A model generated the notes under the pieces. It ran no database searches and was not told the origin of the DNA. It saw only the letters and a program-made list of their open reading frames with translations. A DNA stretch of 64,000 nucleotides from a virus. Location of the stretch: positions 1 to 64,000 of IMG/VR virus record IMGVR_UViG_3300001202_000057, one strand, 5' to 3'. Made by a program: the position numbers and the translations under genes. Positions 3,104 through 45,411 of the stretch are shown piece by piece; position 1 is the first letter of the stretch; each line of letters opens with the position of its first letter.

Positions 3104-3104
3104 T

Positions 3105-4847: not shown

Positions 4848-4860
4848 GACACTTGAAATT

Positions 4861-15451: not shown

Positions 15452-15452
15452 T

Positions 15453-17096: not shown

Positions 17097-17110
17097 ATAA
17101 TTATAACACA

Positions 17111-22500: not shown

Positions 22501-24116
22501 TTTAACATAGCTTTATAACCAGGAAAAGAAGTTCCATTACCAAATATCTGAGTGTGCATACCTTTTACAAAATTACCTACACCCATAGATTTCTCTACAA
22601 TATCCAAAGATTCTTTTAAATTAGATATAATACTAGTTTCAGTAATTTTACCTCTAGCTTCTAATTTAGCAATTTTTAATAATAAATGTTCTTTTAACTT
22701 ACTAGCTATTTTAGTAAATTCACTGTCAAACTTTTCATTAGATTTAGTTTTAGAAATATTTTCATCAATTTTATAAGCTTCAAATACTTCTTCATTAAGA
22801 TTTATTGTAAATTGATGTTCAGGCGATATAGATTCTATTGTGTTACCAGCAGTCTCTGTAAGATGTAGTGGTAAAATAGAAATAGGATTATTACCTAATC
22901 TATATCCTTTAGAATGAGCCATAGCTAAATACATACTTTGTTGAGCAGAGTGTTTCTCTTTAGTGCTAGCATGTTTATTACCTTCAGTATCTGTGAATCT
23001 TCTATTGTACTCTTTACTATGTTTTTTACCATCCATTGTAGGATTTATACTAGATTTTAAATCTACTATTTCAATAGCACCATTAGGTTTAATAGCTACA
23101 ACATCTAATGCACCACCAACACCTTTCTGCTTATTAAACATATTGACCTGGGTAAGAATAATATCATTAGGATTAGCTTTAACAAAGGTTTTAAATCTTT
23201 TATAAGTAGTATCAAATGCATCTTCTGAAATAGTTACCGGAAATTCATTTATAGCTTTTATAATATCAGATTTAGATTTCTTTTGTATAATACCACTTAA
23301 CATTTCATCTAATAGGTTACCCCACTCTCTATTATTTTCATATTTACTAGAATCTCCAGTGAATTTAAAATAGTCTTTTTCACCACTAGGACCTAACATT
23401 TGAGAAATAACATTAGAAGTTCTTTCTAATCTTAAACTACCATCTAGTATATAATGACTAAGATCATCAGATAATTCCATTCTATTAGAATCATTTAATA
23501 AATCTTCTACAGTTTCTCTTTGATTAACTGGAGAACTTTCAAGTATTTGACTAAAATATTGATTTACTCTGGGATCTTTATCTATTAATTGATTAAATAC
23601 ATTACCTTGCCTATTTGGATCAAATAAAGCACTATATACCATATCTATACTAGGTTCTGGTAGTGTTTGCTCTACTATTTCATTATTTTGTCTATCATCA
23701 AATAAGGATTTTTTAGCATTTTCTAAAGAGCCATTTAAAGCTCTAAAATTAGGATTCTCATCTTTATAGTGCATAAGACCAGAAGTACCAGTAACAGGTA
23801 TATATTCTATATTATTATCTCTAATAAAAACAGCTTCTATTTCTGAATCAGACATACCAGATTCTTGTAAGTCTCTGTAATGTCTTTTTAAACTATCAGA
23901 GAGTTGTGATGGAGAAAATTTAGAATCAAAATATTTAATATCTTTAGCCATAAGAAGAGATTTAGCCCATACTCTTAGGGCTAAGTCTTTATCTCCATGT
24001 ATTTCTTTCAAATTTAATATGTCTTGATATAATTGTGATGGATCACCATTAGTATCTAATACTTTAGTGATAATTCCATTATCATCTCTAAATATTCTTT
24101 GTCCACAATTTTTCAT
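19503..24116 (-). CDS. 1537-aa virion/ejected-type protein with an embedded RecB-like PD-(D/E)XK nuclease domain and a C-terminal hydrophobic segment
   Basis: GGALDVVAIKPNGAIEIVDLKSS (D338 ... D352-L-K354, nt 23049..23105) followed by HSAQQSMYLAMA (QxxxY). The rest is long coiled-coil-like sequence, with a hydrophobic stretch LTAVITVGVLSFALL near the C-terminus. The start is separated by 1 nt from the stop of the 4496-aa gene. Confidence 0.55.
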   Translation of the reverse strand: MKNCGQRIFRDDNGIITKVLDTNGDPSQLYQDILNLKEIHGDKDLALRVWAKSLLMAKDIKYFDSKFSPSQLSDSLKRHYRDLQESGMSDSEIEAVFIRDNNIEYIPVTGTSGLMHYKDENPNFRALNGSLENAKKSLFDDRQNNEIVEQTLPEPSIDMVYSALFDPNRQGNVFNQLIDKDPRVNQYFSQILESSPVNQRETVEDLLNDSNRMELSDDLSHYILDGSLRLERTSNVISQMLGPSGEKDYFKFTGDSSKYENNREWGNLLDEMLSGIIQKKSKSDIIKAINEFPVTISEDAFDTTYKRFKTFVKANPNDIILTQVNMFNKQKGVGGALDVVAIKPNGAIEIVDLKSSINPTMDGKKHSKEYNRRFTDTEGNKHASTKEKHSAQQSMYLAMAHSKGYRLGNNPISILPLHLTETAGNTIESISPEHQFTINLNEEVFEAYKIDENISKTKSNEKFDSEFTKIASKLKEHLLLKIAKLEARGKITETSIISNLKESLDIVEKSMGVGNFVKGMHTQIFGNGTSFPGYKAMLNSSIQRINNSENIDVEKEIKKLQGIYDMVYDMLPENNPVIRDLIALYNERDTGLEPDKGSPLAQMKEIVEHVALMEKNHLETITRLQAKVIASTLDETRLTKENADTRKLLRKKERLEAKIATLGNGLVGLGRKKVLDLKIKDLKRQIETNGGKIINGELILPDSMEELVYQQLKDGLYNNISFLEHKVTSLSQNRNKFIAGFAKLLKERMEKARVKSTPFMNEASKTYNAYLKTLGGNRSNYAKINEPFYTTNSFFDKDGKETERRSFISPISYSAYNKALYKAKQDALKLHEFNSAGYNRHMKGWYKANRQARPQKSIILDGQILLEGVDTIVARKEKQLTRGDFKAWRDKNVTAEGDLIGELSIPNMTKFFDPKFRDLYGSPKTSYKSTTPKQKVYSLMIRQYFKAQSLLPEKSNEQDKFYTPSVPKGTDEKLLENNSLEQLKDNVVYSLKNQLLSQEEDIDLYGHPAKNSVHMKYDFHMDVKDSSLDLMQSVLLYNHAANEYEARNSLLSFGESLITTIKKSDNPFKLNAVGKRILKHNAHEFEGDDRYERVKNGENNVEKAFLDYFDDKIIGRTKIKQDLGPVDANKAAAGLMRYVSTIQMGPLKLTNIANALQANVMVAMEAIAGEYFDKSEWANALYLYGKYEAQLAFVNDRYRHDRPQSTIAKLIELYDPMREYNSSAINKMTNSTTKKLLDGAWFKAQEKGEHQAAATAMIAMLQQKKITFQGKQMSMLEVYEKHGVDAIEVDYKLMSKLHGVNKRLHGVYNQLDKTDIERHWLGGLIAMYRKFLVPGVQKRFKSTSFDEEIGDLTKGSYREFVDMLLFQRNELGKLLNPFNKESVNLTKREKANIKRAIFELTAVITVGVLSFALLKAGENDEELKKNTGYNLAVYFSLRLLSELKTYGMVGDINSAGLPDFNAISRTTNTVTLTESGFNKVVEIFKQFPNMGERYKRDSGVFNKGDLKINAKILKALGFNGHLYASEEARKLAERFYR

Positions 24117-24117
24117 A

Positions 24118-27100
24118 TTATTCGCATTTACTTAGTTGTTCAATTAAATCATCTACTTTTTGCTGAGTAACTAACTCAGCTTTATTTCTATTAATCATAA
24201 TGTCTTCATTAACTAATAATTCAGCCAACTCTATAATAGTAGTATTAGCAGGTATAGTATCAGAATCCAAGTTTTTAATTCCTAATATTTCTTTTATGAA
24301 CTTTAAAAACTTGTTCAATATATTAGTCAATTTCTTAGGTTGAGATATTTGTGCTGCATGTTCTCCTAGCTTAGTTACAATAGCTTCTTCTATTAGTTCA
24401 TTAGTTTTATAGCCATTTTCTTTAAGTCTCTCTACTAGAGCCTTATCTTTCATGACTTCTCTCTCTAATTGTCTGTAGAGGGGCTTATTAGTTTTTTTTA
24501 TGGCTGCTATAAATGGGTGAGCAAATTCATGATACAAAGTATCTAATCTCATTTTGTTTGGGTTGAGGTATACAATATTAGTACTTTCATCATAAGCTCC
24601 TAAACCTCTTATCTCAGTAGAGAAGGCATATTCAATCCCAAATTTAGTACGTAGTTTTTCAAGAATAGTTCTAGCGTGCTTAATAGTGACTTTCTGCAAG
24701 TGAGAATCTAATTGATCTTTCATTCCAAAACTAGCAGCAGTAACACCTTTCTTACCACTTAAAGAAGATTTAAACTTTTTCTTTTTATCTTTCTTCTTTT
24801 TAGGCTCTTCTGAAATATCATCAGATAATTCACTAGCACCTAGTATAGCTGCATTTTCTTCAGTTGATACTTCTTCAACAGAAGCAGGTTCTGTAGAAAC
24901 ACCTGGAATATACCCAGGAGTTAACATAGCTTGATTGGTGGATAAAGGAATAGAACTAGCATCAAAATCTTTATTACCAATAGGAGCTACAGGAATATAT
25001 TCAAAAGAGTGACCTACAGAAGTATTACCAGTTATAGGTAACTCATTTCCTCTATAATCTTTAACTTTATGTAATTTAAACAATACAGTTTTAACACTAG
25101 CCCCTTTAGTGTACCTAAAAAATCCTTCTGCATCTTGAGTTATTTGTACTCCCATTCTAATTATTCTAGGAGCTATAATAACTGCATCTTCTGAAGCTTT
25201 GCCAGGTCTAATAAAAGGAAGTACTTTTTCAAATACTTGATTACCTTCACCATTAGTAAGATTCTTAATATTAGTAGCTAAAGTAGCTTCATGATCATTT
25301 TTAACTCCTTCTCCGACGTTTACAATAAGAGATTGCTTACTATCTTGCCAACTAACTAATCTTCTAGCTTTTTCAACTTTAAAATCTCTAACTCTTCTCC
25401 CCCTTACAAAGGTATACATATTCTGGGGATTTCTAGTAAATAATTCAAAGAATTCTTCAGGAATATTTTCTCCAAGTAAATCCTTATGACTTTCATCATT
25501 TAAAAAGTTTTCATGAACTTCTCCTAAAGATCTGGTAACTTTAGTTAATAATTGAGGAGCTATTTGTTTAACTAATCCATTATTAGAATATTTTAAACTA
25601 TCTTTAACCATTATATACTCAAACAAGTCAATAGCAAAATTCTTGTGATCAGAATTATTACTCTGAGCTAAAGCTAAAAAGTCATTTGTCAATTGTTCTA
25701 TAAAAGTTTCAGAATACTTATTTCTAGTATCACCTTCTATAACAGTAATACTCTTAGGAGTACCATCATAATAAGGAGATTTAGGAGTAAGTTCATAAGA
25801 GTTAAATTTTAAAAATTGTAGTAATAAATTTTCAGGTAATTCTTCTCTAAGAGCATTAACCTGACTCTTCATATAATTCTCATCAAACATTAACTGTTCA
25901 ACCCTTACTTGTGATACATCAATATTATTTTTCTTAATAAATGCCTTATTTTGTAAATAAGCCATCATACTAGAAACTACTTTATTTTTATTATCACTAA
26001 ACTCTATACTAGAAGTTTTTAATCCACTGGCTATCTCTCTAAATATTTTTTTAAATTTATCAGTTCTAGAAATAAAGAATTTTTTAGCTTGATTATCTAA
26101 TTCAAATAAGTTTTCTATTTGAGATTTTAAATAAGAATTAGCTAATAATATTTCTCCAAAATTTGTTATAGGAACAGGAATAATATTATCTGCAAAATAT
26201 AATTCTTTAGTTTCAGAATCGTATTTAATATTTAATTTATCAATAGCATTAAATATTCTATCTACATCAGACCAAGTACCTGATAAACCCTTAGCTAAAT
26301 CAGTTACAATAGCTACATTTTTAAAGTTGTCATTAATATCTGCTAAAGCCCTAAATTGTAATAATAAATAGTGTTGTAATTTATTAGCGTCATCAGTGCT
26401 AGCACCATTTTTAAGAGATTCAATTAAATCTTTTTCAGTTAATTTATAATCTTCTTCACTAGTAGGATATTCACCAATCATTTCATCAATAATGTCCTTC
26501 ATTTTAGTTTTAAGCTCTCTTTTTTCTTCTCTCTTAAGTACAGAAGATTTAGCTTTATCTATTTTATTAGACAATCTAACAATAGCAGGTTGCTTAAGAA
26601 TCATCATAGTCTTATTAAAAGACAGACCTGAAGAAATCATTATTAATGCTGGACCAATCATTTCCTTAGTTAAGTTAAACTCAGATGCAAATTGTTCTTT
26701 AGCATTATCCGTCATGGCAGCAAGTACAGAAGATATTAGACCATTAATTCTAGCTTTATCTTCATTTAAAAATTTACCATTCTCAATAGTAGTAGGTCCA
26801 ATAACTCTTTGGCCAAATAAATTTCCTACTGAATTACTTATAATAGATAAATGACCAGAAAAATTAGCTAACAACTGAAATGTAATATTCATTTTAGCTG
26901 CAGGACCAATATTAGCTCCACCAATATCAATAGCTTCAGCAGCATTTTGTTTGTTATTTTGATTGTGTACAGAACCAGATAATTTAACTTTTTTAGCTAT
27001 ACCCCTATCTTTTAGGAATTGTCTTAATGTTAAAAATGGATCAAAATTTGCTCCAGAAGCAGCTTGTACTTTATTACCAGAATTTTGAACAAAACGATTT

Positions 27101-30100
27101 TGAATATCTAATAAAGTATTGTTGTTTTCTTCTCTGCTTAGTGGTTTATATTTAGTTAAATCTCCTTTTTTAAAAGCTTTAATATTTCTTTTAATTCTTC
27201 TGCCATATTTAGCTTCAAAATCTTTAAAAGTATCAGGTTGTCCAAGAGCAATTAATAATTGTTGGTCAGAATATTTATTCTTTTTAACTAATAATTTAGC
27301 TTTAGGAGTTTTAAACAAACCTAATTTAAATTCTTCATAAGCAGTTTCTACTGGATTCTTAGAAGTCAAGTATCCACCAAATTTATTAATCCCAGAAACA
27401 TTAGTATAGAGTTCATATCTATTAGAGAATAATGAATCAATATCAAAATCCGCCCCTGATAAATATTGTATTTCAGCCGGAAGAACTATGGAGTTACCGT
27501 ATTCTCTAGGTAGAAAATCAACTATTCTAATATTAATCATAGAATACTTATCTTCCGTAGGAATTCTTACTCCTAGCTCCTTAGCTATATGTTCTGATAT
27601 AGAAATAGTTTCTCCTAGTTTAACATCATACTTATCTAATATCTCTTTAGAAATCATAACCTCAGAATAGTAAGTACCATCTTTATCCTTAATTCTGTGT
27701 CTTAATCTATCTGGGATAGATTTCTTTGGGGGAGGACTTCCTTGTTTATGTGGAGTAACAGAACCATCTAAATTTCTATTAACTTTAATATCTTGTCCTG
27801 GATATAGAGTATATTTAGTACCAGCAGTCTTTTGTTTAAGACTATTCTTAGATACACTAGATAAGAACATTGATTCAAACTTAGTTACTATAGCAGAAAA
27901 ATTCCAATTATATACTGGTCTATTAAGTTCATCTACTTTAAATATTTCTAATAAATAAGGATCAACGTTAGATTGCTTTAGAGATTCAATAAACTTAGAA
28001 TATAAATATTCAAAATCAGCTTGTCCATCTTTATTAATAACATCTACAATATTCTCAAGACCTTGTTGATTCCTAAGAGCTAACAAACCTTCATATATAG
28101 TTTGTAATTGACTAAGTTTAAATTCAGTACCTTTTATAGTAACTGGAGTAAGAGGATTTTGTTCTGAAAATATTAAGCCTAATTTTTGAGTACCATCTGT
28201 AATTTCAGATTTGTTACCATCTGTAATTACTTGTTCTCTCATATTAGTGTTCTCTATAATAGTAGGGTCTTGTTGGGACCATTTACCATCTTTAAATTCA
28301 GATACATTAGCCGTAGAACTCTTAGATACAGAAGTAGAAGCTAGTATTTCTACTACACCATCTTCTTCTAAGTTTAAAAACTCATGAAATTTTTCATACC
28401 CAGGTCTAGCTGTATATGCTTCTTGAACATCTTGAATAGAAATTTCATTTCTGTCATACTTGTCCCATAAAGCTAATAAAGATTCGTCACTAAGTTCTGA
28501 ATAGGAAGCTAATCCTCTAGTTACAGTACCCATAGACATCTTCATAGTACCAGTTAAATCTTTATACACAAACTTTCTAGACCTTATATCTGCATTGTTC
28601 TCTTTTAAGATTCTATACTCAGCAGGAGTAAGTTCTACACCGGTTCTAATTTTGTTCATGTAGATTTTCTCAACCTCTTTAGTGTAGACACCTTTATTCT
28701 TAAGATACATGATTGTATTTCTTAATCCTTGAGTTGCAAAACCATCTGCTAATTCTACTTCTGTTTTTTCATCTAATTTTACTCCATGATCTTCAAAATC
28801 TCTAATATTATCAATTTCCTCTTGAGTATAACCTTTTTCTAATAATTCTTCATTAGTAAATTGTCTGAATGGGTTAGCTAAATCAAATGGATTACTAGCA
28901 CTGAATGTTTCATCATTAGTATACATTACTTTTGATTGCCCATAGCCAACACTATTACCAGAAGCATTCTTAAGACCATTACGCTTTACAACATCAGTAG
29001 GGTTCTTATACATCATAGCATAATCACCATCTAATATATTAGATATAGCAAATGAATTTAACCAATCATTTAAAAAATAATTTCCTATATTAGCATGTAA
29101 TCCAGCCCCACCTACATATTCTTTAGGTAGTAGTTTATTTTTAGGATTTTTTCTATCACCAGTAATAAGACCTAGTTCTAATAATTTATCACTGAATACT
29201 TTAACTTCTGTATCCATAAACTTTTTAAGAGCTTCTCTAGTAGAATCTACAGTATTAATCTTCTTACCTTGAATAGCAGCTATAAATAACTTTCTTCTAG
29301 TATCTACATCTAAATCATAAAAATTGAAAAAATCTAAACCACTAAAATTAACTTTACCAGCACCAGATTCATTAGCTTTGTCAATTAAAGTTTGTTCCAT
29401 TTTGTCAAAAATTTCACGTGCTTTATTAACATCTGTTTTAGCCTCAATCATCTCCTGTTGAGTAAATTGCTTAAATCCAGTATTATAATTTTTAATTTTT
29501 CTAGTAGCTAATTCAGGATTTCTAATCTCATTAGCAATTCTAGCTATCCTAGTAAATTCTTGGTTTAATAAATCAGACATCCAATCTACAGCAAAACCAG
29601 ATGGCTTACCTCCTAAAAAGAAATTATGTATTGGTAATCTTAAATTGTAATTAGTGGATTTCTCTGCTATTACTCCTGTGTTGAAAAGTCTAGTATCAGT
29701 ACTAAATTTATTCTTATTAAAAGTAGCAGATGAATCAGCAAATTGCATCATATTCATAAGAGTTTTAGAAACTCTATCTGAAGACTTAAATGTTCTAGCT
29801 GTTCTTCTTAAAGCACCAGGAATACCAGTTTCTTTAGCATCATTAACATTATCAATAACTAAACCATCTTGAATAGTGTATGTTAATGTTTCAAATAGTT
29901 GTTGAGCATATTCTAAATTTTCTAAAGACACATTACCTTCTTTATCAACAGACATACCTTTAATAAGAGGATTATTAACAAATACTTCTAACATCATCTT
30001 AGCATCATAAGGATCACTAACTATTCCATTATCAATTATAAGTTGTAATAGTTGTTTTCTTGTTAAATCTCCTTTACCTATATCAGTGGCAGTAGCATAC

Positions 30101-33100
30101 TTAAATAATTCTTTTACTAATTCTTTCCTATCAGATCTCCACAACATTATTTGTTCAGTATAAAAACTATGAAATCTTCTAGGATAAATAGTTTTACCTT
30201 CAGAATTTTGAAATGTAGAATCAACTACAGATGGGTCAAATACAGCATTACCTTTAGCCATTTCTAAAAATAAACCAGAAAGACCTAAATTAGCATTATT
30301 ACGATTATTACTAAAGTCAGTAGAACTGTAAGGACCTTCAGGACCTACTTGCTCATCTTTAGTTTGTTCCATAATTTTAATATGAGCACCCATACCCATT
30401 ACTAATTTACCACCAGCAGCATGTTCACTTAAGAATAAAGGTACTTCACTAAATGCTTCTACAGTATCTAAAGCTTCTCTGTAAGCTGCAGCTTCATTTT
30501 CATCTCTAGCATTTTTAATTTTGTTTATTAAACCTTGCTTTCTTGTTTTAGAGGAACCACCAAAATTAATATAAGAATATAAGTTTAATTTAATATATTC
30601 AGGATCAAGAGTAATACCTAATTCTTTAAACTCATTTCTAATATTTTCTATAATAGTATCTGGGTCAGTAAATACTGATCCCACATTCTTATCAATTTGT
30701 AATTGAATATTTTTTAATCTCTGTAATACTTCTTTTCTAAGTTTTCCACCCTTAAGCTTTTTAGACTCCATCAAAGATGTAAACTTATTACGCCATCTAT
30801 CAAACTGCACCTGTTGTACATCCTTCTGATTAGCATTAAGAATTTTATAATTAGTATTCTCAGTATCAAAAATCATAGTCATAAAAGTAGACGTACTTTG
30901 ATAAAATCCATTAGAGATTAGATTATAAGTATTAGATTTAGATAATTCTTCTACAGTTAGGGACGTAATATCCCCATTATGGTCTATGACACCATTTAAT
31001 TCTTCCATGACATCTCTAAAGAACTCATGTCTGAACACATTCATATTTACATCAGTATTACCTAAATACTGTATTCTTTTAATTATATTTTCCCTAGTAG
31101 TATCAGACAGACCTCTAGCCAACATTGTATATATTTGTGGACCATCAGTAGCTAATATGTGTTTAGGATCAGTGTTATCTAAATTACTAAATTCTAAACC
31201 TAAATTAAATTCATCATAAGCATATGGTATTAAAGATATATACTGCTTAATTCTTTTAGATAGATTACCAAATCCACCTAATTCAAATTTAGACTTATCA
31301 AAGTTTTGTACTCCACCATTATTGTTTTCATCAGCTTCAGAAGAACTCTCAGAATCAAGAGCACTTACATCATAAAAATTAATAGAGTTTCTAACTTCTT
31401 TAATAATCTCTTTAATATTAGGATTATTAGAATCTTCAACATTGAAAGAATCTCTTCTTAATCCAATTGTATGTAATACTTTAGATAATTTATCAAAGTC
31501 TTCTCTTTTAGACAACTCTTTAATTTCATTGTTCCAATTTTCATCTTTAAAATTATCAGAAAACTTTTGAGTTTCTTCAAGTATTAATTCATTAGTAAGT
31601 TTTTCATTTTTTAATCTATTAAGTACATTTCTAGTAATAATACTAATAAACTTTTTAGCTTCATTAGCATTATAATATTGTATAGCTTCAGATTCATCTT
31701 CATCTATTTTTTTTAAACTAAATGCTAAATCAACAGAAGGGGGAGTAAACTTGGGGTTAAAATTTTTATATTTACCTTCAGAAATATTCTTAAATAAGTT
31801 CTCTACTTCATCAGACTTATTAAATATAGACTTAATTAAATCTATTAATTGATCAAATATACGTCTAATTAAAGATTTAGGTTTTTTAGCCTTATCATTA
31901 TTCATATAGTCTTGAAACATGTCAGCTAATTTCTCTTCATAATACAGTTCTAACAATTCTTGATTAGTCAAATTCTCATATTGAGTAACTCTACCTTGAA
32001 GTTGTGTCAATTCTGCTTGTAATTCTTTTGGAGAAAGTTTATTAGCTTTTTTCATAGCTCTATATAAAGAAGCTTTTTCTGAAGGTTTCAGAATTGTTCT
32101 AAATACATAATGAAATGCCTCATGGTATTCAGTACCTTTAGGTAAATTTTCAGCTAGATATATAATACCATTACTAAACAAACCATGTGGTATACCTGTA
32201 ATATCAAAGTTATGAAGAATAGTTTCTAATCTATCTACTGAGACATGATCACCTAAAATAGACTTAAGATTATCAACAGCTTTTTGTCTGTCTATTGAAT
32301 CTCCAAAATTACCATTTGTTATTTTAAATGGTGTATTATCTTTTGTATCTTTAGGTGTATTATCATTTATATAATCTTTAATCTGCTTATTAACTTTAGC
32401 AAGATTTAATTTAGTTAAATCTAAATTAAGATCTATACCAGTAGCATTTGAAAGTTCTGTTATAATTTCTAATACTTTTTCATTAACTTCTTGAGTAGCA
32501 GCAGGAGTTCCTATTATTCTAGATAAAGTACTTAGCTTTTTGTTCTCTGCAGCAACAGTCTTTAAATGTCCAGTACTATTATTGACTCCAGGATTAGATT
32601 TAGTAATAGGTGTTGGCCCTGAGCCACTATTTTCACCATTGTCAAAACCACCATTTACTATAGCTTTTAATTTTGATTTAGCTTCAGTAGATACTTTTAA
32701 TTTAAGTTTTCTTTTCTTCTTTTTCTTTTTACCCTTAACTCCTTTACCTTTATTTTTAATACTAGGAGTACTATTAAAAGGCAACATGCCTACTTTTTTA
32801 GGAGTAGTTTTAGGTACAAAAAATGGTACTGAATCAGAAGGTGCATTAGTAACAACCATTTGTTCAATACCTTCAGTTGTAGGAGCTGTATTCTTTTTAA
32901 AAGCACTCATTTTAACAGTAGATGCAATAGGATTAGCTTCATCTTTAGTTTCTCCATTATTTTTGTTAATTTGGTTAAATACACCAATAACATTATCAAG
33001 TGAGAAATCAATAAAACTAATACCAGATTTTATCTCAAGATTACCATTATCTTTACGTTTAACTTCAATGTTTCTAAATCTAGTTTCATCTTGTCCAACT

Positions 33101-36100
33101 TTAACTTGAAGACCTATAGTTAACCGATTTTTAGAAAAACCAGGAATTTTTTCATGTGTAGCTTCAACAAATTCATCATTAGCAAGTTCTTCTTTATTAG
33201 CTATAGCAGATTTAAGATTCATATTAATGTAAACGGTTCTATTATCATCATTCTTTACAGAAATAAATGTTTCAGAACCAGCACCTAATAAATCAATACC
33301 AGTACCAACACCATTAGTACCATTAGTAATAGTATCTAACTTTTGTTCATGTACTTCATCAGTAAAAAATCCAGGTTGTTCTATAGTATCAAACAAATCC
33401 TGTATAGTTCTAGTTATTCCAAATTCTAATGATTTAGATTCAGCTTCTGATAAATCAGTACTATTTAACCCTGGTGGAATACCCTCATACAAATAAATAT
33501 TACTATTTTCTGCATTAGCTCCATTTTCAGCGTATATTTCTAAATTAGGTTTTTTATTACTTAATTTTTCAAACTTTTTACCTGCTTTACCTTGTTTATT
33601 GTGAGTAGTAGATATTAATTTACCATCTATTTCTTCAATAGAATTGTATACTTTAATATTAGGATCAGAAGCATTAGCTTTAGTATGTTTTTTAAAGTAA
33701 GATTCTCTAACTCCTGCTACTTTATCATATAACTCTTTATCATCTACAGAATTTACTTCTCTAATACCATCATTGTCTTTAATATAGTAATCTCCCCTTC
33801 TACGATCAAAAATAACTAAACCTTTTACTCCATCACCTAAATCTACATAATGGTTAGATTTAAATGCTTCATCAATAGGCAAATTCTTTTTTTCTTTATT
33901 AGAATTTAAAGCTACTGAACGAGTACTACTATATAATTTAAAGTGCTTAGCCCAAACTTCATTAGGAATTTCTTCATCAGTATCATACTCATAAATTTTA
34001 TCCATCATTTTAGACATTTCAGTAAAATAATGTTGAAAATCAAGTCCTTTTTGAGTTATATTACCTTTAGCAGATACAAATGCTGGATTAAATAATTTTA
34101 AATCTGCCACATCATTTGGATCTAAAGGTACTTTTTCTTTGTCAACTACTTTATGAAATCTTCTAGGGTCTAATACAATACCTAATTCTCTATTTTCCTC
34201 ATTTGTACCAAAAGCTTTTTTTATATAAGCAGTTACTTTATACTGAGATTGTTGGTTTCTATCTTTATTATTAGACATAATACCAATCTTTTCAAATACA
34301 CCAGTATTACCTTTTGGTTTAAAACCAGAAGGATTAGTTTTATGCTCTGATTTTTCAATTTTGAATTGAACTCTATTTCTAGCTCCAGAATTCTCTCTAA
34401 AAAATTGTTGATTATCTTTTATCTCATTATTATCATAATGCCAAATTTCAGAAATAAATTTAGCTACATGTGCTATAGTATTAGGTTTAGTAACAACAGT
34501 TTCAAGATCTTTAGCAGAACTAACTAACAATTGTTCAACTTCAGTCATATGATTATTTAACATAGTCAAATAACTCTCAAAATCTTGTTTGGCTTCTCCC
34601 TCAGGAAATTGAGATATATGATTGGTGACATGTTGAATCTCTGATTTTAAAATCTTTTTTATACTATTTAATGTAGAAATATTTTTATCTATAGATTCTT
34701 TACTTTCAGGATCTTTAACATAGTTTTTACTATGTGGTGCAAGTTTACCTAAATGATTATTTATTGCTTCTTTAACAGCTTCAGTTTGAATATCATCAGA
34801 TTGATATCTTACAGAGAAAATATATTCATTATTTGATTTATCTACTACATCTTCAGACTTTTGTAATTCTTCAGTAATCTCTTGTTCAGAAACTTCTGTC
34901 CTACTTAATCTCTCTTGAATAGATTTTCTAGCTAAATCTCTAGTTAAAGCTTTCTTTTGATCTAAAAAATTTCCAGTTAATCTAGTCAGTCTTTCTTTAT
35001 CAACTTTTCTAGTGTGGTGTTTTTCAATTTCCTTTTTAAATATTTCTATATCAGATAAAAAATTTCTTTTACCTTGTGTACTAGTCAGTTGTTCAAATTC
35101 CCAAATAGCAGACTTTTGTCTATTAGTAGCTTCTTCAACCTCTTTGAATAAATTGTCTACTTCAGTTTTTATATACGGATGTTCTTTTAAAAGACTATTA
35201 AGATTTCTTTTGTGATGATTTGCATTTTCTACAACTTTAGTAATTTTTTCTATAGATAAATTCTTAAACTGATTAGGTTTTTTAGCTTTACTTTTAGTTT
35301 GAATCTCTTTAGCTATAACATCATATTCAGCTAACAGTTTTTTCTTGACTTCTGGAGAAGAGGCTGCATCAATAGCTCTTCTTTTAGATATAGCCTCTTT
35401 AATTGGACCTGAAAATCTATTTACATCAGCTATTGCTTCTGCATCTATACCATCAACACCTAACTTATCAAAAGTATCTTCAAAAGATTTATTAATTTGA
35501 CCAATTTTAGTGGCTCTAACTTTATTCAAATGATTTATACTATGTATAGTATAAGCTAATGCTTCTTCATAATCAGTATCTAAATCTTCATTACTAACTA
35601 TCTTTTTAGCATTTTTAAGAGCTTTAGCTACAGACTGATTAGCCTCTTTAACATGAGTTCTAATTTCATTTTTAATTTGATCTAAAGATTTATCTCCAAC
35701 TTCAATATCTTCAGGAGTTACTCCCTTTGAGTTAGCTGCAAAATCTTTATAATCTTCAATTGATTTAATATTGTCAAGAATGTGATTTACATCTGACTCA
35801 TAAACGTCCCCCATACCTGCCCTGTGTCTAGCAGCAGAGGCTCTAAAAAAAGCATCATTTTCAGCTATTTCATTAGAAAGAATAGTTTTCCCATCTCCTT
35901 TTAAACTTTCAAAGTTAGCTACAACAACAGACATAGTTTCTGTTAGATTTTTCTTGGCAAATGTTGAATTGATATCTTTAGCCATTTTTTCTTGATCAGC
36001 TTTAATTTTACCCCAATCACCAGTAAATACATCTAATCCATTGACTTCATTACCTTTTGCATTTTGTACAAAAGAAGAAGTTTTACCAATAACAGCACCT

Positions 36101-37608
36101 ATTAAAACTTCTTTCAAGCCTTCAGTAGTACCGTATTGATGTGCAAAAGCATCTATATATCCATTTATCATAGATATAGCATTTTGAGTTCCTTCTGGAG
36201 AATATTTAGAAGTAACATAATTCATAGCTCCCCCCGAGAGAACACCTTGACCACCTTCTTCAACTACACCTTCCATAAAGCCATCTTTAGCTGTATGATA
36301 TAAAACTCTACCAGTTTTACCTAATTTAGAATAAGATTTATGAGCAGCTTTCCACAAACCAGTTCCAGCATCTTGAACAATATCAGTTGTTGCTTGAGAA
36401 GCAAGTTCTCTAGACCCAGTTTTTAAAGCTAGCCCATCAAAAATTGATGGAAGAGTTACAGCATTAGAAGCTGAAATTAAAGCCATATTACCAAGCATAA
36501 CTACGTTAGCTTGAAGTTTTAAATCATCATTAATTTGCTTGTATTTTTCAGGATTAATTTCTTTTAACTCTTCTAAAGATTTAATATCTATACCATCAGA
36601 TTCTTTTAAATTAGCAATTATATTTTGTTCAGCCTCAGTTAAGAAACCTCTAGCTTCCATACCAGCTTCAAAATAAGAACCAGTAGTTAACTGTCTTGCT
36701 TTTTTACCAATATTATTAATAGTTGCAGACTTAGCTATATCATCTAAAATCTTATCATTTATAATTTCATCAAAATTACCTTTTCTAACAGCAGACTTCA
36801 TTCTTCCAAATAATCTGGATACTTGAGTAGCTTTTTGTGCCAATCTACCAGTAGCAGCCACTTGTAGTGGTGCAGCAGCGCCCCCTGTAACCCCTGTAAG
36901 AGTACTTAATGCAAGTTCTTGCAATATAGCACCCCCTGTAAAAGCGGCAGCCCCAAATAAATCATTAAAAACAAAATTTTGCCACCCTTCTCCCACTATA
37001 GGAAAAACTCTTTCATTTTCAGCATCTGTTCTATGATTAGGTAAGACTTTTTGTAGATAAGCTGCAAAGTCATCAGACTGCTTAAAGAAGAAGTTATTAT
37101 CTCCTCTAAAAGCTTCTCCAATAGTTTCATCAGATAATCCTGATGTCAACACCCTAACAGCAGATTCAGCTACTCCCAACAATCCTATAGTAGGCATAGT
37201 AATTAAAGTATTAGCAGCCTTTATAGTACCATTAGCAGCTTTAGCCCATCCAGATTGTTGATGTGCTCTGTGGTTTTCACCTTTTGTAAGAGCATTAGCC
37301 CCTTTATCATATTTAGACCACTCTCCTGTATACAAGAAATTATCTTGACTTGCTTGAGCTGCATTATCAATACCTTGTAACAAATCTTTCAAAGAACCTA
37401 ATTGCTCAGGTTCTGGATTTGATTGTGGAGACTCAACCTTAGGCGGATCTACATTTGTAGGTTCTGTATCTGATGAATTAGAAACAGCATTAGGATTAGG
37501 TTTTAAATCTAAAGATCCTATATCTTCTCTAATTATTTCAGGCCCACCAGTTAATGGTGGTACAATGTTTTTTGGTAGTCCCGTAGTACTATCTATATTG
37601 TTATCCAT
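24118..37608 (-). CDS. 4496-aa giant protein: candidate virion-packaged two-barrel RNA polymerase fused to two zincin (HExxH) modules and an N-terminal Gly/Ala-rich hydrophobic region
   Basis: An uninterrupted 13.5-kb ORF. GVRIPTEDKYSM...IVLPAEIQYLSGADFDID (aa ~3346..3391, nt 27436..27573) resembles the beta-prime NRAPTLH...LHPLVCAAYNADFDGD barrel. HEAFH lies at aa 1829..1833 (nt 32110..32124) and HEFAH at aa 4360..4364 (nt 24517..24531). Poly-Lys linkers lie at about nt 32700..32760 and 24770..24815. Confidence 0.65.
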   Translation of the reverse strand: MDNNIDSTTGLPKNIVPPLTGGPEIIREDIGSLDLKPNPNAVSNSSDTEPTNVDPPKVESPQSNPEPEQLGSLKDLLQGIDNAAQASQDNFLYTGEWSKYDKGANALTKGENHRAHQQSGWAKAANGTIKAANTLITMPTIGLLGVAESAVRVLTSGLSDETIGEAFRGDNNFFFKQSDDFAAYLQKVLPNHRTDAENERVFPIVGEGWQNFVFNDLFGAAAFTGGAILQELALSTLTGVTGGAAAPLQVAATGRLAQKATQVSRLFGRMKSAVRKGNFDEIINDKILDDIAKSATINNIGKKARQLTTGSYFEAGMEARGFLTEAEQNIIANLKESDGIDIKSLEELKEINPEKYKQINDDLKLQANVVMLGNMALISASNAVTLPSIFDGLALKTGSRELASQATTDIVQDAGTGLWKAAHKSYSKLGKTGRVLYHTAKDGFMEGVVEEGGQGVLSGGAMNYVTSKYSPEGTQNAISMINGYIDAFAHQYGTTEGLKEVLIGAVIGKTSSFVQNAKGNEVNGLDVFTGDWGKIKADQEKMAKDINSTFAKKNLTETMSVVVANFESLKGDGKTILSNEIAENDAFFRASAARHRAGMGDVYESDVNHILDNIKSIEDYKDFAANSKGVTPEDIEVGDKSLDQIKNEIRTHVKEANQSVAKALKNAKKIVSNEDLDTDYEEALAYTIHSINHLNKVRATKIGQINKSFEDTFDKLGVDGIDAEAIADVNRFSGPIKEAISKRRAIDAASSPEVKKKLLAEYDVIAKEIQTKSKAKKPNQFKNLSIEKITKVVENANHHKRNLNSLLKEHPYIKTEVDNLFKEVEEATNRQKSAIWEFEQLTSTQGKRNFLSDIEIFKKEIEKHHTRKVDKERLTRLTGNFLDQKKALTRDLARKSIQERLSRTEVSEQEITEELQKSEDVVDKSNNEYIFSVRYQSDDIQTEAVKEAINNHLGKLAPHSKNYVKDPESKESIDKNISTLNSIKKILKSEIQHVTNHISQFPEGEAKQDFESYLTMLNNHMTEVEQLLVSSAKDLETVVTKPNTIAHVAKFISEIWHYDNNEIKDNQQFFRENSGARNRVQFKIEKSEHKTNPSGFKPKGNTGVFEKIGIMSNNKDRNQQSQYKVTAYIKKAFGTNEENRELGIVLDPRRFHKVVDKEKVPLDPNDVADLKLFNPAFVSAKGNITQKGLDFQHYFTEMSKMMDKIYEYDTDEEIPNEVWAKHFKLYSSTRSVALNSNKEKKNLPIDEAFKSNHYVDLGDGVKGLVIFDRRRGDYYIKDNDGIREVNSVDDKELYDKVAGVRESYFKKHTKANASDPNIKVYNSIEEIDGKLISTTHNKQGKAGKKFEKLSNKKPNLEIYAENGANAENSNIYLYEGIPPGLNSTDLSEAESKSLEFGITRTIQDLFDTIEQPGFFTDEVHEQKLDTITNGTNGVGTGIDLLGAGSETFISVKNDDNRTVYINMNLKSAIANKEELANDEFVEATHEKIPGFSKNRLTIGLQVKVGQDETRFRNIEVKRKDNGNLEIKSGISFIDFSLDNVIGVFNQINKNNGETKDEANPIASTVKMSAFKKNTAPTTEGIEQMVVTNAPSDSVPFFVPKTTPKKVGMLPFNSTPSIKNKGKGVKGKKKKKKRKLKLKVSTEAKSKLKAIVNGGFDNGENSGSGPTPITKSNPGVNNSTGHLKTVAAENKKLSTLSRIIGTPAATQEVNEKVLEIITELSNATGIDLNLDLTKLNLAKVNKQIKDYINDNTPKDTKDNTPFKITNGNFGDSIDRQKAVDNLKSILGDHVSVDRLETILHNFDITGIPHGLFSNGIIYLAENLPKGTEYHEAFHYVFRTILKPSEKASLYRAMKKANKLSPKELQAELTQLQGRVTQYENLTNQELLELYYEEKLADMFQDYMNNDKAKKPKSLIRRIFDQLIDLIKSIFNKSDEVENLFKNISEGKYKNFNPKFTPPSVDLAFSLKKIDEDESEAIQYYNANEAKKFISIITRNVLNRLKNEKLTNELILEETQKFSDNFKDENWNNEIKELSKREDFDKLSKVLHTIGLRRDSFNVEDSNNPNIKEIIKEVRNSINFYDVSALDSESSSEADENNNGGVQNFDKSKFELGGFGNLSKRIKQYISLIPYAYDEFNLGLEFSNLDNTDPKHILATDGPQIYTMLARGLSDTTRENIIKRIQYLGNTDVNMNVFRHEFFRDVMEELNGVIDHNGDITSLTVEELSKSNTYNLISNGFYQSTSTFMTMIFDTENTNYKILNANQKDVQQVQFDRWRNKFTSLMESKKLKGGKLRKEVLQRLKNIQLQIDKNVGSVFTDPDTIIENIRNEFKELGITLDPEYIKLNLYSYINFGGSSKTRKQGLINKIKNARDENEAAAYREALDTVEAFSEVPLFLSEHAAGGKLVMGMGAHIKIMEQTKDEQVGPEGPYSSTDFSNNRNNANLGLSGLFLEMAKGNAVFDPSVVDSTFQNSEGKTIYPRRFHSFYTEQIMLWRSDRKELVKELFKYATATDIGKGDLTRKQLLQLIIDNGIVSDPYDAKMMLEVFVNNPLIKGMSVDKEGNVSLENLEYAQQLFETLTYTIQDGLVIDNVNDAKETGIPGALRRTARTFKSSDRVSKTLMNMMQFADSSATFNKNKFSTDTRLFNTGVIAEKSTNYNLRLPIHNFFLGGKPSGFAVDWMSDLLNQEFTRIARIANEIRNPELATRKIKNYNTGFKQFTQQEMIEAKTDVNKAREIFDKMEQTLIDKANESGAGKVNFSGLDFFNFYDLDVDTRRKLFIAAIQGKKINTVDSTREALKKFMDTEVKVFSDKLLELGLITGDRKNPKNKLLPKEYVGGAGLHANIGNYFLNDWLNSFAISNILDGDYAMMYKNPTDVVKRNGLKNASGNSVGYGQSKVMYTNDETFSASNPFDLANPFRQFTNEELLEKGYTQEEIDNIRDFEDHGVKLDEKTEVELADGFATQGLRNTIMYLKNKGVYTKEVEKIYMNKIRTGVELTPAEYRILKENNADIRSRKFVYKDLTGTMKMSMGTVTRGLASYSELSDESLLALWDKYDRNEISIQDVQEAYTARPGYEKFHEFLNLEEDGVVEILASTSVSKSSTANVSEFKDGKWSQQDPTIIENTNMREQVITDGNKSEITDGTQKLGLIFSEQNPLTPVTIKGTEFKLSQLQTIYEGLLALRNQQGLENIVDVINKDGQADFEYLYSKFIESLKQSNVDPYLLEIFKVDELNRPVYNWNFSAIVTKFESMFLSSVSKNSLKQKTAGTKYTLYPGQDIKVNRNLDGSVTPHKQGSPPPKKSIPDRLRHRIKDKDGTYYSEVMISKEILDKYDVKLGETISISEHIAKELGVRIPTEDKYSMINIRIVDFLPREYGNSIVLPAEIQYLSGADFDIDSLFSNRYELYTNVSGINKFGGYLTSKNPVETAYEEFKLGLFKTPKAKLLVKKNKYSDQQLLIALGQPDTFKDFEAKYGRRIKRNIKAFKKGDLTKYKPLSREENNNTLLDIQNRFVQNSGNKVQAASGANFDPFLTLRQFLKDRGIAKKVKLSGSVHNQNNKQNAAEAIDIGGANIGPAAKMNITFQLLANFSGHLSIISNSVGNLFGQRVIGPTTIENGKFLNEDKARINGLISSVLAAMTDNAKEQFASEFNLTKEMIGPALIMISSGLSFNKTMMILKQPAIVRLSNKIDKAKSSVLKREEKRELKTKMKDIIDEMIGEYPTSEEDYKLTEKDLIESLKNGASTDDANKLQHYLLLQFRALADINDNFKNVAIVTDLAKGLSGTWSDVDRIFNAIDKLNIKYDSETKELYFADNIIPVPITNFGEILLANSYLKSQIENLFELDNQAKKFFISRTDKFKKIFREIASGLKTSSIEFSDNKNKVVSSMMAYLQNKAFIKKNNIDVSQVRVEQLMFDENYMKSQVNALREELPENLLLQFLKFNSYELTPKSPYYDGTPKSITVIEGDTRNKYSETFIEQLTNDFLALAQSNNSDHKNFAIDLFEYIMVKDSLKYSNNGLVKQIAPQLLTKVTRSLGEVHENFLNDESHKDLLGENIPEEFFELFTRNPQNMYTFVRGRRVRDFKVEKARRLVSWQDSKQSLIVNVGEGVKNDHEATLATNIKNLTNGEGNQVFEKVLPFIRPGKASEDAVIIAPRIIRMGVQITQDAEGFFRYTKGASVKTVLFKLHKVKDYRGNELPITGNTSVGHSFEYIPVAPIGNKDFDASSIPLSTNQAMLTPGYIPGVSTEPASVEEVSTEENAAILGASELSDDISEEPKKKKDKKKKFKSSLSGKKGVTAASFGMKDQLDSHLQKVTIKHARTILEKLRTKFGIEYAFSTEIRGLGAYDESTNIVYLNPNKMRLDTLYHEFAHPFIAAIKKTNKPLYRQLEREVMKDKALVERLKENGYKTNELIEEAIVTKLGEHAAQISQPKKLTNILNKFLKFIKEILGIKNLDSDTIPANTTIIELAELLVNEDIMINRNKAELVTQQKVDDLIEQLSKCE

Positions 37609-37610
37609 AA

Positions 37611-39740
37611 TTAATTTATATTAATAGTTTTTTGAGCTTGTATTGATTTATCTAACATTAAATTAGCAAAATCTGCAAATGGTATTTTACCATCAGAAGT
37701 TATAAATACTGGCATAAAAGCATTGTTTTGCCTATCATGCTCTACTTGTATTTTATACTTAACTCCATCTACAGTTATACTTTGAGGTTCAAAGTAATTT
37801 GATTTTGTAGGATCTGCATAAACCATATCTAAAGCTTTTTCTATAGGTTTTTTATACTCTTTTGTTTTAGAATTTTCTATTCTAACATGAAGATTTGTTT
37901 GTACACCTTCTTCATTAACAGTACTAACTAAATAATCTGGTAATTTAAATTTACCATCAACTCTACTAGGAGTATTAAATCCTGATCTAGCTTGAATTTT
38001 TATTTTAGCTCCTTGTAAAATATTACCATCAGAAACTACCTTACCATCTTCATCAAATATAGTACCTCCTGGAGGCATTATAAAGACATTACCAGGACCT
38101 ATTAAAGCTTTTTCAGCTTCTTCTATTCCTGCTTCAGATAAAGGTATATGAGCTGCAGCTACTGATCTAGTATTATTAACTGTATCTTCAAAATAAGCTA
38201 TAAGTTCATCCTGTTGTTTTGAAGTATACCTAGAATTAGATTTAGACTCTTCAAACTCTTTAATTTTTTCTTTAAATTTAGGATCACCACTAGCTTTTAA
38301 AGCTTCTATAAAGTTTCCTGCAAAAGAGTCCATTTTAGTATTTATAATTTTTCCATCTGTTTTAGCAGCTCCGCCTGGTGCAAATAAATCCTTAAATCTA
38401 CCAATTATTGTATCTGTAGATTCAATTTCACCATCATGAACTTCAGTAACTTTACCAAATATACTATGATCAGGTCTTTTCTCAGACTTAGAAGTGCTCT
38501 TTTTATCAAAAGATTTTTCAGCTATAGTTCTTTTAAAAGTTTTACCTAAAGACTTTATAGTTTCACTTGTTTCAAAAGATCTAAGTGATTCAACGAACGG
38601 TTTAGAAATATTACTAAAATGTTCTGTAGTTAAATTATTAATTATATCATTATCTGATAAAGTAGATAATTTTTTAGTTCTATCATTTAAAGTTCCTATA
38701 TTAGTATTTATAGCTTCAATACCTTCATCCAATTTTGATATAGCATCTTCTAAAGCTGCTCTAGTTCTAGGTCCGTCTGCATTATCTACATCTAATCCAG
38801 CATTAAAATTATCATTCAATGCTTTTTGCAATCCTTTTATATCTGTATCAGCTAAATTTTGTAAATTGGCTTTTAAATTTGTGGCTTCAGTAAGCCCTTC
38901 ATTTTGAGTTGTTAAATTAGTATCTATATTATCTTTAAGTCCAGTTCTATGAGTATTAAAATCAGTTTTTGCTCTAGTAAACTGTTGAAATAGCTCTAAA
39001 TGTCCTGACTCTTTAGCTCTTCTAGCAACTAATGAATCTACATCATTTTGAAGTTTCTGAATTTCTTTATTTGTCCAACCTTTTTCTGTTAAAGTTCTAG
39101 CAATATTAATTCCATCTACTTGGCCTAATTCTGTAGTAGTTAATGAATTTTTAACTTTAGGTTGTAATTTAATAAATTCAGTTATTTCTTTATTATAATC
39201 TGGTATATCAGCAGGCTTTCCAAAATTAAGTGATTTACCTGCAGCTAGTCCACCAACACCATTATCATTAAGAGTATTATATTGCTCTAAACCCCTATTT
39301 ACATATGCCCAATAAGCTTCCCTATTTTGTAGTTTACCCTCACTTCTAAGTTTATCTGCTTCAGCTATTCTAGTTGCAACTGCTTTTTTATTAGCAGCTA
39401 TTTTAGCTAAGTTCCCAGTTGCAACATTTCTAGCTATAGAAGTACTTGCTTCTTTTAAAGCCCTATTAGCTTTACTAATATTATCTGGACTATCTGCAAA
39501 CATTTGAGTAACACCATCTACAGTTTGTTTTATCTGCTCAAGTTCATTGTCTCTAAGTGCTTCATCTACTTGCAATGCATCTACATTAATATCAGATAAT
39601 GTTTTAAAAGTATCAAATTTCTGTTGTTGTCCAGCTAATACTGCTCCGAAAGCTTCAAAGTTTGGAGTTGGTATTTCATCAGGAACATAATAGTTTGTAC
39701 TAAAATCTCTCCTGAATGGTTGAAAATATCTATTTGTCAT
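37611..39740 (-). CDS. 709-aa virion-associated protein, largely coiled-coil (function unknown)
   Basis: A long ORF 2 nt upstream of the giant gene. It is rich in Ala/Lys/Glu/Asn heptad-like sequence and has no enzymatic motif. Confidence 0.45.
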   Translation of the reverse strand: MTNRYFQPFRRDFSTNYYVPDEIPTPNFEAFGAVLAGQQQKFDTFKTLSDINVDALQVDEALRDNELEQIKQTVDGVTQMFADSPDNISKANRALKEASTSIARNVATGNLAKIAANKKAVATRIAEADKLRSEGKLQNREAYWAYVNRGLEQYNTLNDNGVGGLAAGKSLNFGKPADIPDYNKEITEFIKLQPKVKNSLTTTELGQVDGINIARTLTEKGWTNKEIQKLQNDVDSLVARRAKESGHLELFQQFTRAKTDFNTHRTGLKDNIDTNLTTQNEGLTEATNLKANLQNLADTDIKGLQKALNDNFNAGLDVDNADGPRTRAALEDAISKLDEGIEAINTNIGTLNDRTKKLSTLSDNDIINNLTTEHFSNISKPFVESLRSFETSETIKSLGKTFKRTIAEKSFDKKSTSKSEKRPDHSIFGKVTEVHDGEIESTDTIIGRFKDLFAPGGAAKTDGKIINTKMDSFAGNFIEALKASGDPKFKEKIKEFEESKSNSRYTSKQQDELIAYFEDTVNNTRSVAAAHIPLSEAGIEEAEKALIGPGNVFIMPPGGTIFDEDGKVVSDGNILQGAKIKIQARSGFNTPSRVDGKFKLPDYLVSTVNEEGVQTNLHVRIENSKTKEYKKPIEKALDMVYADPTKSNYFEPQSITVDGVKYKIQVEHDRQNNAFMPVFITSDGKIPFADFANLMLDKSIQAQKTININ

Positions 39741-39742
39741 TA

Positions 39743-45409: not shown

Positions 45410-45411
45410 TA

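Follow-up and report, generated by a model that had tools for sequence, protein, structure and literature searches.

The giant open reading frame (ORF) of 4496 amino acids (aa) found in IMG/VR virus record IMGVR_UViG_3300001202_000057 appears to encode a cargo protein of the 'RNA polymerase (RNAP) module' of a divergent crAss-like (Crassvirales-type) phage, partly fused and carrying two homologous gluzincin-type modules, a reading to which we give a probability of about 0.8. Positions 1 to 64,000 of the record were analysed (64,000 nucleotides (nt), hereafter the window, with a G+C content of about 30%). For the giant ORF itself, homologies, domain order, residue conservation, the modelled fold of the second module and a gene boundary that shifts among relatives were observed directly. 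The parts of the ORF are the following, all coordinates being those of the window and (-) denoting the minus strand.

24118..37608 (-): giant ORF of 4496 aa; predicted fusion of a cargo/zincin part, a virion RNAP and a second zincin
35374..37317 (-): conserved N-terminal domain, aa 98-745, homologous to the N-terminus of ΦcrAss001 gp47
36439..37221 (-): span of the Gly/Ala-rich, weakly hydrophobic segments aa 135-153, 218-254 and 369-387
32770..35373 (-): variable charged helical region, aa 746-1613
32695..32769 (-): Lys-rich tract 1 (TPSIKNKGKGVKGKKKKKKRKLKLK), aa 1614-1638, preceding the first HExxH by about 190-215 aa
31609..32301 (-): zincin module 1, aa 1770-2000, with HEAFH at aa 1829-1833 (nt 32110-32124) and Glu1891 (nt 31936-31938)
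25429..31608 (-): two-barrel virion RNAP part, aa ~2001-4060
24904..25428 (-): region aa 4061-4235, between the RNAP part and the linker
24724..24903 (-): acidic/Ser-rich linker and then Lys-rich tract 2, aa 4236-4295; the tract (EPKKKKDKKKKFKSSLSGKK) is aa 4268-4287 (nt 24748-24807) and precedes the second HExxH by about 75-90 aa
24121..24723 (-): zincin module 2, aa 4296-4496, with HEFAH at aa 4360-4364 (nt 24517-24531) and Glu4408 (nt 24385-24387)

The ΦcrAss001 proteins gp47, gp50 and gp49 were found by BLASTP to map, in that order, onto the giant ORF and the ORF downstream of it. Residues 69-750 of gp47 aligned with aa 98-733 of the giant ORF (E 1.3e-9) and residues 2133-2299, which belong to the module 1 domain with which gp47 ends, with aa 1805-1956 (E 9e-10); gp50 showed 52% identity around the catalytic DFDID motif (E 3e-14), and gp49 aa 697-1291 aligned with aa 932-1472 of the downstream ORF (E 6e-22). 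The DFDID motif is located at aa 3387-3391 (nt 27436-27450), and the central part has the single chain and the DFDxD metal-binding motif of a two-barrel RNAP. In tblastn searches the matches of this central part, at about 27% identity, were confined to RNAP genes of Crassvirales, among them KP06_gp44 'RNAP catalytic subunit', and came from 69 phage records, essentially all of them crAss-like (named or unclassified gut-phage records); the module 1 region matched Crassvirales genes annotated as 'putative RNA-polymerase subunit'. Nine giant ORFs from IMG/VR, of 3.9-4.8 thousand aa, exhibited 25-33% identity over about 2000 aa and were aligned from aa ~1730 to ~4060, while the N-terminal part (aa 76-689) matched the giant ORFs of the IMG/VR relatives L004/L005 (BLASTP, E 5e-30). 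BLASTP gave no alignment of aa 746-1613 to any related giant ORF, nor of aa 4061-4235, the alignments of the relatives ending at about aa 4060. A protein identical to the giant ORF is present in the public collection, as a singleton cluster, on a JGI/IMG contig of 116.9 kb.

The same three blocks in the same order constitute the RNAP module of Crassvirales (ΦcrAss001 gp47/gp50/gp49, phi14:2 gp67/gp66/gp65, p-crAssphage gp45/gp44), where a YHEAFH-type zincin ends the gp47-like part, the RNAP is of the DFDxD two-barrel type and the genes stand in a post-muzzle/cargo position. Likewise in the window, gp47-like and gp49-like partners adjoin the RNAP and the locus lies downstream of muzzle/cargo genes. 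A further likeness is to phi14:2, in which a zincin stands at the start of the gp65-like protein. Identity to the Crassvirales RNAP-module proteins is only about 22-30% outside the catalytic motif. The presence of RNAP-module proteins in the virion and their ejection into the host are known from the literature for phi14:2 and ΦcrAss001. In contrast to the Crassvirales with split genes, the window phage has the gp47-like and RNAP parts in one chain and the second zincin on the C-terminus of the RNAP. ΦcrAss001 has zincin 1 only and phi14:2 only the zincin in the second position; in cr1_1 it is the downstream protein that has a second HExxH (HELVH), at its residue 517, and in cr118_1 there is none, whereas in the window phage it precedes the gene boundary.

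An earlier note on this DNA, made from the sequence alone, had described two HExxH motifs and proposed that they mark paralogous zincin modules. Both motifs lie exactly where it had placed them, the coordinates having been re-verified, and no other HExxH occurs in the giant ORF, with 0.075 expected from composition. The note had also named loss of the motif in homologs as a refutation; the HExxH turned out to be invariant at both positions in relatives of only 20-40% identity. For module 2, an exhaustive phmmer search retrieved 402 cluster representatives at E<=1e-3, and across 158 aligned segments H4360, E4361, H4364 and E4408 are 100% conserved. The AlphaFold2 (AF2) model, built from an alignment of 26 sequences, has a predicted local distance difference test score (pLDDT) of 86.4 and a predicted template modelling score (pTM) of 0.79. 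It contains a helix at module residues 14-28, strands at 31-34, 42-45 and 50-53, a helix at 60-78 bearing HExxH and a helix at 107-127 bearing E4408, so that module 2 has, in the model, the zincin core fold of an N-terminal helix, three strands, an HExxH helix and a later Glu helix. In a Foldseek comparison with the PDB the top 25 matches were almost all zinc metallopeptidases, with probabilities up to 0.93, the top structural matches being MATCAP, IrrE/ImmA-like proteins, ArdC, minigluzincins, BlaR1, anthrax LF and Spartan. Comparison with BFVD gave 12 matches at E<=1e-3, to structural proteins of crAss-like and other phages, among them a Tenacibaculum phage structural protein with a template modelling (TM) score of 0.69; proteins with a 'large polyvalent protein associated domain' trail behind (E 0.002-0.06), and phi14:2 gp65 is weaker, at E 0.024. 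A search of the word-indexed collection with the module 2 alignment returned one weak match. A bromodomain (PCAF) hit on aa 4357-4440 in a single-sequence search of the PDB (E 0.005) was set aside as chance, given the confident zincin model and the conservation in the family.

For module 1, the nine IMG/VR relatives all have the motif in the form YHEAFH[AV]VF, as does ΦcrAss001 gp47. The Y-HEAFH residues and E1891, located 62 residues downstream, are invariant in 9 sequences of 20-31% identity, and also in 14. The two modules are marginally similar by pairwise BLASTP (E 0.038); hhalign paired their small alignments with 93% probability (E 3e-7) and, with 54 sequences for module 1 and 158 for module 2, with 97.2% probability over 127 columns (E 3.8e-11), the strands, HExxH motifs and Glu helices of the two modules being matched to each other. 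From these profiles, with the invariant HExxH and Glu and the zincin core model of module 2, the modules are judged paralogous, homologous zincin-type domains. Both are of the gluzincin type (HExxH and a Glu on a later helix), as in the 'polyvalent' proteins of phages and plasmids, and the conserved distal Glu (E1891, E4408) would be a metal ligand.

Several results weigh against this assignment. The whole protein and both module alignments gave nothing significant against Pfam and PHROGs, and sequence-profile searches of the PDB with the modules were negative or below threshold, with only oligopeptidase A at E 0.066. In the Foldseek comparison of module 2 with the PDB no E-value reached <=0.001 and the TM-scores were 0.2-0.37. 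The AF2 model of module 1, from a 14-sequence alignment, has a pLDDT of 53 overall and 67-89 in the core, showing a hairpin and helices, and a Foldseek search with this low-confidence model returned noise only. The single module 1 sequence found no match in the word-indexed search. Neither module matched a curated metallopeptidase sequence model; below threshold, the Pfam family DUF6782 'putative metallopeptidase' appeared at E 0.02-0.05 in 3 of 26 sequences. MPTase-PolyVal, which we take to be PF18818, is among the Pfam metallopeptidase models without a match here. When the module profiles were compared by hhalign with the single proteins phi14:2 gp65 and p-crAssphage gp45, the HExxH and Glu helices were paired but with only 18-30% probability, and the link to these two proteins therefore rests on position, motifs, the gp47 BLAST match and the BFVD match to gp65.

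The earlier note had also related the modules to the metallopeptidases of polyvalent proteins, which is reasonable: the published core of the polyvalent metallopeptidase domains, including ArdC, matches the module 2 model (Iyer et al. 2017, PMC5512222), and ArdC and polyvalent-associated proteins are among the structural matches. These domains occur in 1-5 copies per protein, and their known HEXXXH variants have a counterpart in an ORF of L004/L005 described below. Unlike them, the crAss modules form sequence families of their own with no Pfam metallopeptidase match. In P0013, a metagenomic gp47-like C-terminal fragment, the zincin is followed by an ART-PolyVal ADP-ribosyltransferase domain (PF18760, E 6e-13), which ties crAss cargo proteins to the polyvalent-effector theme. 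In phi14:2, the protein g070 (593 aa, annotated 'tail protein', at 20361-22142 of L013) is a Cys-free virion protein encoded upstream of the RNAP module with two HExxH motifs (HEFTH, HEFIH); it is a BFVD structural match of module 2 (S0A053, E 0.014), and zincin-like modules may be present in smaller cargo proteins as well. Outside Crassvirales, gp74 of Tenacibaculum phage Gundel_1 (Pachyviridae, L011 6041-13489) is a Cys-free structural protein of 2482 aa with HEFGH at aa 1337. It matched module 2 by tblastn (E 1e-3) and in BFVD (TM 0.69), and the module-2-type domain is thus common to giant virion proteins outside Crassvirales.

The fused architecture proposed in the earlier note, with a cargo part and zincin 1, an RNAP core and zincin 2, is borne out by the mapping of the ΦcrAss001 proteins. 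The pieces fused in the giant ORF are encoded separately in relatives, as would be expected of the segments of a polyprotein. In the Suoliviridae genomes cr118_1 and cr1_1, from uncultured phages, ORFs of 4946 aa and 4551 aa join the gp47-like part to the RNAP; HEAFH falls around aa 1700-2000 and DFD[IV]D around aa 3200-3450, and a separate gp49-like gene comes next. The place of module 2 coincides exactly with a gene boundary that is mobile. Of the 158 segments, 21 lie at the C-terminal end of the protein, 46 at the N-terminal end and 67 within it, the proteins being of about 1.0-6.9 thousand aa. It opens the downstream protein in L002, L003, L008, L009 and in phi14:2 gp65, and in L004/L005 a homologue of module 2 stands alone as a 677-aa ORF at 15306-17339, between the giant and gp49-like ORFs, with the active-site motif HEILGH (HEXXXH, one extra residue) and Cys at positions 3 and 677. 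In the main, these observations confirm and extend earlier proposals for crAss-like phages, in which the virion RNAP travels with zincin-type domains and the gene boundaries of the RNAP module move freely. For a specialist, their value is that homologous domains occupy the two zincin positions, one known so far from p-crAssphage/ΦcrAss001 and the other from phi14:2, and that in a large uncultured clade zincins flank the polymerase on both sides.

The suggestion that the arrangement is new did not hold, the zincin1-RNAP-zincin2 layout being present in at least 30 database cluster representatives and the zincin and polyprotein having been described in print. The p-crAssphage gp45 (KP06_gp45) is annotated 'RNAP associated protein fused to zincin protease'. 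According to Drobysheva et al., the RNAP belongs to the virion together with both of its neighbours, some phages have the three joined in a huge polyprotein that is 'likely cleaved', and one of the three carries a zincin-like protease which might activate the RNAP or digest peptidoglycan; for 'single huge polyprotein' forms they cite Yutin et al. 2018. Metallopeptidase domains, often in several copies, were described in injected polyvalent proteins including the virion RNAP (vRNAP) of N4, with a discussion of autoprocessing and a mention of HEXXXH variants (Iyer et al. 2017, PMC5512222). The self-processing model is consequently a hypothesis already published. Two further proteins resemble the giant ORF by description, no sequence relationship to either having been looked for or found: N4 vRNAP gp50, likewise a giant ejected protein with RNAP and HExxH parts (a T7-like RNAP and a C-terminal HExxH domain) but with a different RNAP fold, and gp96 of Thermus phage P23-45, which combines a two-barrel RNAP with a metallopeptidase domain but has a different carrier, the tape measure protein, to which the RNAP is fused.

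If it behaves like phi14:2 gp66 and the cargo proteins of ΦcrAss001, the giant protein would be carried inside the capsid and, partly unfolded, be ejected through the tail before the DNA or together with it, and the ejected polymerase would then transcribe early genes. The two zincins may be active peptidases working after ejection; the catalytic Glu of HExxH, which is not a metal ligand, is invariant in both modules, and this argues for a real enzymatic activity. We tentatively prefer, at somewhat less than even odds, the reading that the zincins process the cargo chain in cis or in trans, freeing or activating the polymerase, because their positions coincide exactly with the two points at which relatives have the chain split into genes. 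Two observations count against it. The zincins are strictly conserved where the genes are already separate (ΦcrAss001 gp47, phi14:2 gp65), so that the cutting of fusion junctions cannot be their sole role, and N4 vRNAP, with a comparable domain, is packaged unprocessed (Iyer et al. 2017, PMC5512222). At the domain junctions no conserved cleavage-site sequence was identified. The earlier note had suggested this role for the Lys runs, which are indeed present upstream of each HExxH, in inter-domain linkers, and are the sole Lys/Arg-rich 20-aa windows in the 4496 aa. That they are conserved maturation sites for the adjacent zincins is nevertheless very improbable, since a comparable window is present in 0 of 7 related giant ORFs and in none of the three ΦcrAss001 proteins gp47, gp49 and gp50, and a Lys-rich tract precedes module 2 in only 1 of 121 representatives, the others having polar low-complexity linkers rich in Ser/Thr/Asn/Glu. 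Absent from relatives, the tracts are unlikely to be a family-wide cleavage signal and would rather be lineage-specific linker sequence, as AAA/AAG-rich low complexity is the drift to be expected of an unconstrained linker in a genome of about 30% G+C.

The conservation of the modules where no fusion junction needs cutting would fit effectors aimed at the host, cutting on entry a host protein (of the repressor or defence type, as do IrrE/ImmA-like proteins) or peptidoglycan peptides. The best matches among solved structures include site-specific regulatory proteases (IrrE/PprI and ImmA-like proteins) and ArdC, one gp47-like relative adds an ADP-ribosyltransferase effector domain beside its zincin, and both peptidoglycan digestion (Drobysheva et al.) and host targeting (Iyer et al. 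2017, PMC5512222) have been listed as options. We nonetheless hold this explanation to be less likely than not: it names no known target, the sequence carries no readable signal for periplasmic action, and the modules are always at chain junctions, not at variable 'toxin-like' tips. Even less probable is a mainly structural or packaging function without proteolysis, through docking, encapsidation signals or RNAP autoinhibition, for which N4 provides the precedent. There, the region with the HExxH domain is needed for encapsidation of a protein packaged unprocessed (Iyer et al. 2017, PMC5512222), and a 2026 structure paper (PMC13434306) describes the HExxH-bearing C-terminal domain as binding the RNAP and damping its activity. 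Such a function does not account for the catalytic Glu of HExxH being kept in 100% of the 158 module 2 segments and in all module 1 sequences, the distal Glu likewise, a pattern that selection for catalysis would produce. The invariant catalytic residues of both modules also give clean targets for mutagenesis.

The Gly/Ala-rich hydrophobic stretches of the N-terminal part, likened in the earlier note to membrane-active ejection proteins, are present as described (FGAAAFTGG...VAATG at aa 218-254), but their hydrophobicity is weak. Over windows of 19 aa the highest Kyte-Doolittle means, those of aa 135-153 and 369-387, amount to 1.36-1.39, and these maxima are below the value of about 1.6 conventionally expected of a transmembrane helix. 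Similar Gly/Ala segments were found in ΦcrAss001 gp47 and in the giant ORFs of L004, L006 and L007.

The cargo proteins of the window are also distinguished by the number and place of their cysteine residues.

24124..24126 (-): Cys4495, sole cysteine of the 4496-aa giant protein and its penultimate residue
24105..24107 (-): Cys4, sole cysteine of the 1537-aa downstream protein

Four consecutive cargo ORFs, 7,240 aa together, contain just these two Cys, 5 residues apart across the gene boundary, where the junction reads ...TGC GAA TAA T ATG AAA AAT TGT. Most other ORFs of the window have 0.4-5.8% Cys, those at 9648..10622 and 51211..52860 being also without Cys. The structural proteins adjoining the Cys-free cargo genes are Cys-rich (2.5%, 5.8% and 4.0%; 41252-46650 (-) and 60140-63184 (-)); they fit the disulfide-stabilised tail reported for ΦcrAss001 and contrast sharply with the cargo. 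We examined the gene boundaries of the RNAP module in L001-L009, ΦcrAss001, phi14:2, p-crAssphage, cr118_1, cr1_1, cr3_1 and cr271_1, and a terminal-Cys pattern was found at every one of them. Where the gp47-RNAP-gp49 chain is split, the upstream protein has a lone Cys 0-5 residues from its C-terminus and the downstream protein a lone Cys at position 3-5, 'middle' proteins carrying one at each end; fully fused proteins as a rule have none. In ΦcrAss001 these are C2339 of 2341 in gp47, C5 and C2404 of 2412 in gp50 and C5 in gp49, and in phi14:2 C1797 of 1797 in gp67, C3 and C2179 of 2180 in gp66 and C3 in gp65; in the downstream protein of cr110_1 the first Cys is at residue 17 of the annotated start. 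Among 125 representatives (367,729 residues, 158 Cys), 101 Cys lie within 6 residues of a terminus versus 0.64 expected (binomial P ~1e-198). Their distribution follows the place of module 2 in the protein.

Module 2 at the C-terminal end: C-terminal Cys in 19/20, N-terminal Cys in 2/20
Module 2 at the N-terminal end: C-terminal Cys in 5/45, N-terminal Cys in 41/45
Module 2 internal (fused): C-terminal Cys in 5/39, N-terminal Cys in 5/39

Of the fused proteins, 20/39 have no Cys at all. The simplest reading of the terminal Cys suggests that the cargo proteins are strung together by disulfides between them or by metal sites that they share. Ejected crAss-like cargo proteins might thus be joined end to end by redox-labile Cys-Cys links into a 'post-translational polyprotein', a proposal that we advance with some reserve. 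The disulfides (or shared metal) would tie the proteins into one thread that leaves the capsid via the tail in fixed order, the reducing cytoplasm would then release them, and gene fusion, as in the giant ORF, would be the genetic equivalent of the Cys link. A 'cysteine switch' of the zincins was rejected as a general explanation, the same Cys pairs being present at the zincin-free boundaries phi14:2 gp67/gp66 and ΦcrAss001 gp50/gp49, and a lipoprotein-type N-terminal Cys was ruled out, as no signal peptide precedes the Cys at position 3-5. We found no mention of the terminal-cysteine pattern in the searchable literature, which is no proof of novelty. The rule could matter more than the zincins, as it gives a concrete and cheaply testable answer to a question left open by Bayfield et al. 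2023, namely how huge, partly unfolded cargo proteins stay ordered through the narrow tail. In p-crAssphage, gp47 (857 aa, L012 1069-3642), whose gene precedes that of the zincin protein, likewise contains only one Cys, at 856 of 857. The same phage encodes two thioredoxin-like genes, gp37 and gp39 (26459-27726), which may be connected with a redox step in cargo handling.

The genes that adjoin the giant ORF in the window are the following.

19503..24116 (-): downstream gene, 1537 aa, ΦcrAss001 gp49-like, beginning 1 nt past the stop codon of the giant ORF
37611..41239 (-): two ORFs of 709 and 498 aa upstream of the giant ORF, both devoid of Cys and standing where ΦcrAss001 has its cargo proteins gp45/gp46
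41252..45409 (-): virion structural protein of 1385 aa, rich in Cys, at the place occupied in crAss phages by the muzzle/'stabilization' protein

The product of the last gene contains 34 Cys and matched phrog_15100 'virion structural protein' (E 3e-104). The two upstream ORFs gave no Pfam or PHROG match and are assigned as putative gp45/gp46-type cargo by their position. The gene order of structural protein, two cargo-sized ORFs and giant ORF agrees with that of ΦcrAss001 gp44-gp50. A TTG-start ORF of 189 aa at 32540-33109 (+), on the strand opposite the giant ORF's poly-Lys region, is probably spurious and due to AT-rich low complexity.

Elsewhere in the window, the plus strand carries at 29-6399 a cluster of Peptidase_C26/GATase, phiEco32-like COOH-NH2 ligase, GATase_6 and Amidoligase_2 genes, which resembles the phage amidoligase/peptide-modification gene sets described by Iyer and Aravind. 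At 9648-12237 (+) and 15453-17096 (+) are located genes for the small and large subunits of ribonucleotide reductase and a gene of the nicotinate phosphoribosyltransferase family (NAD salvage).

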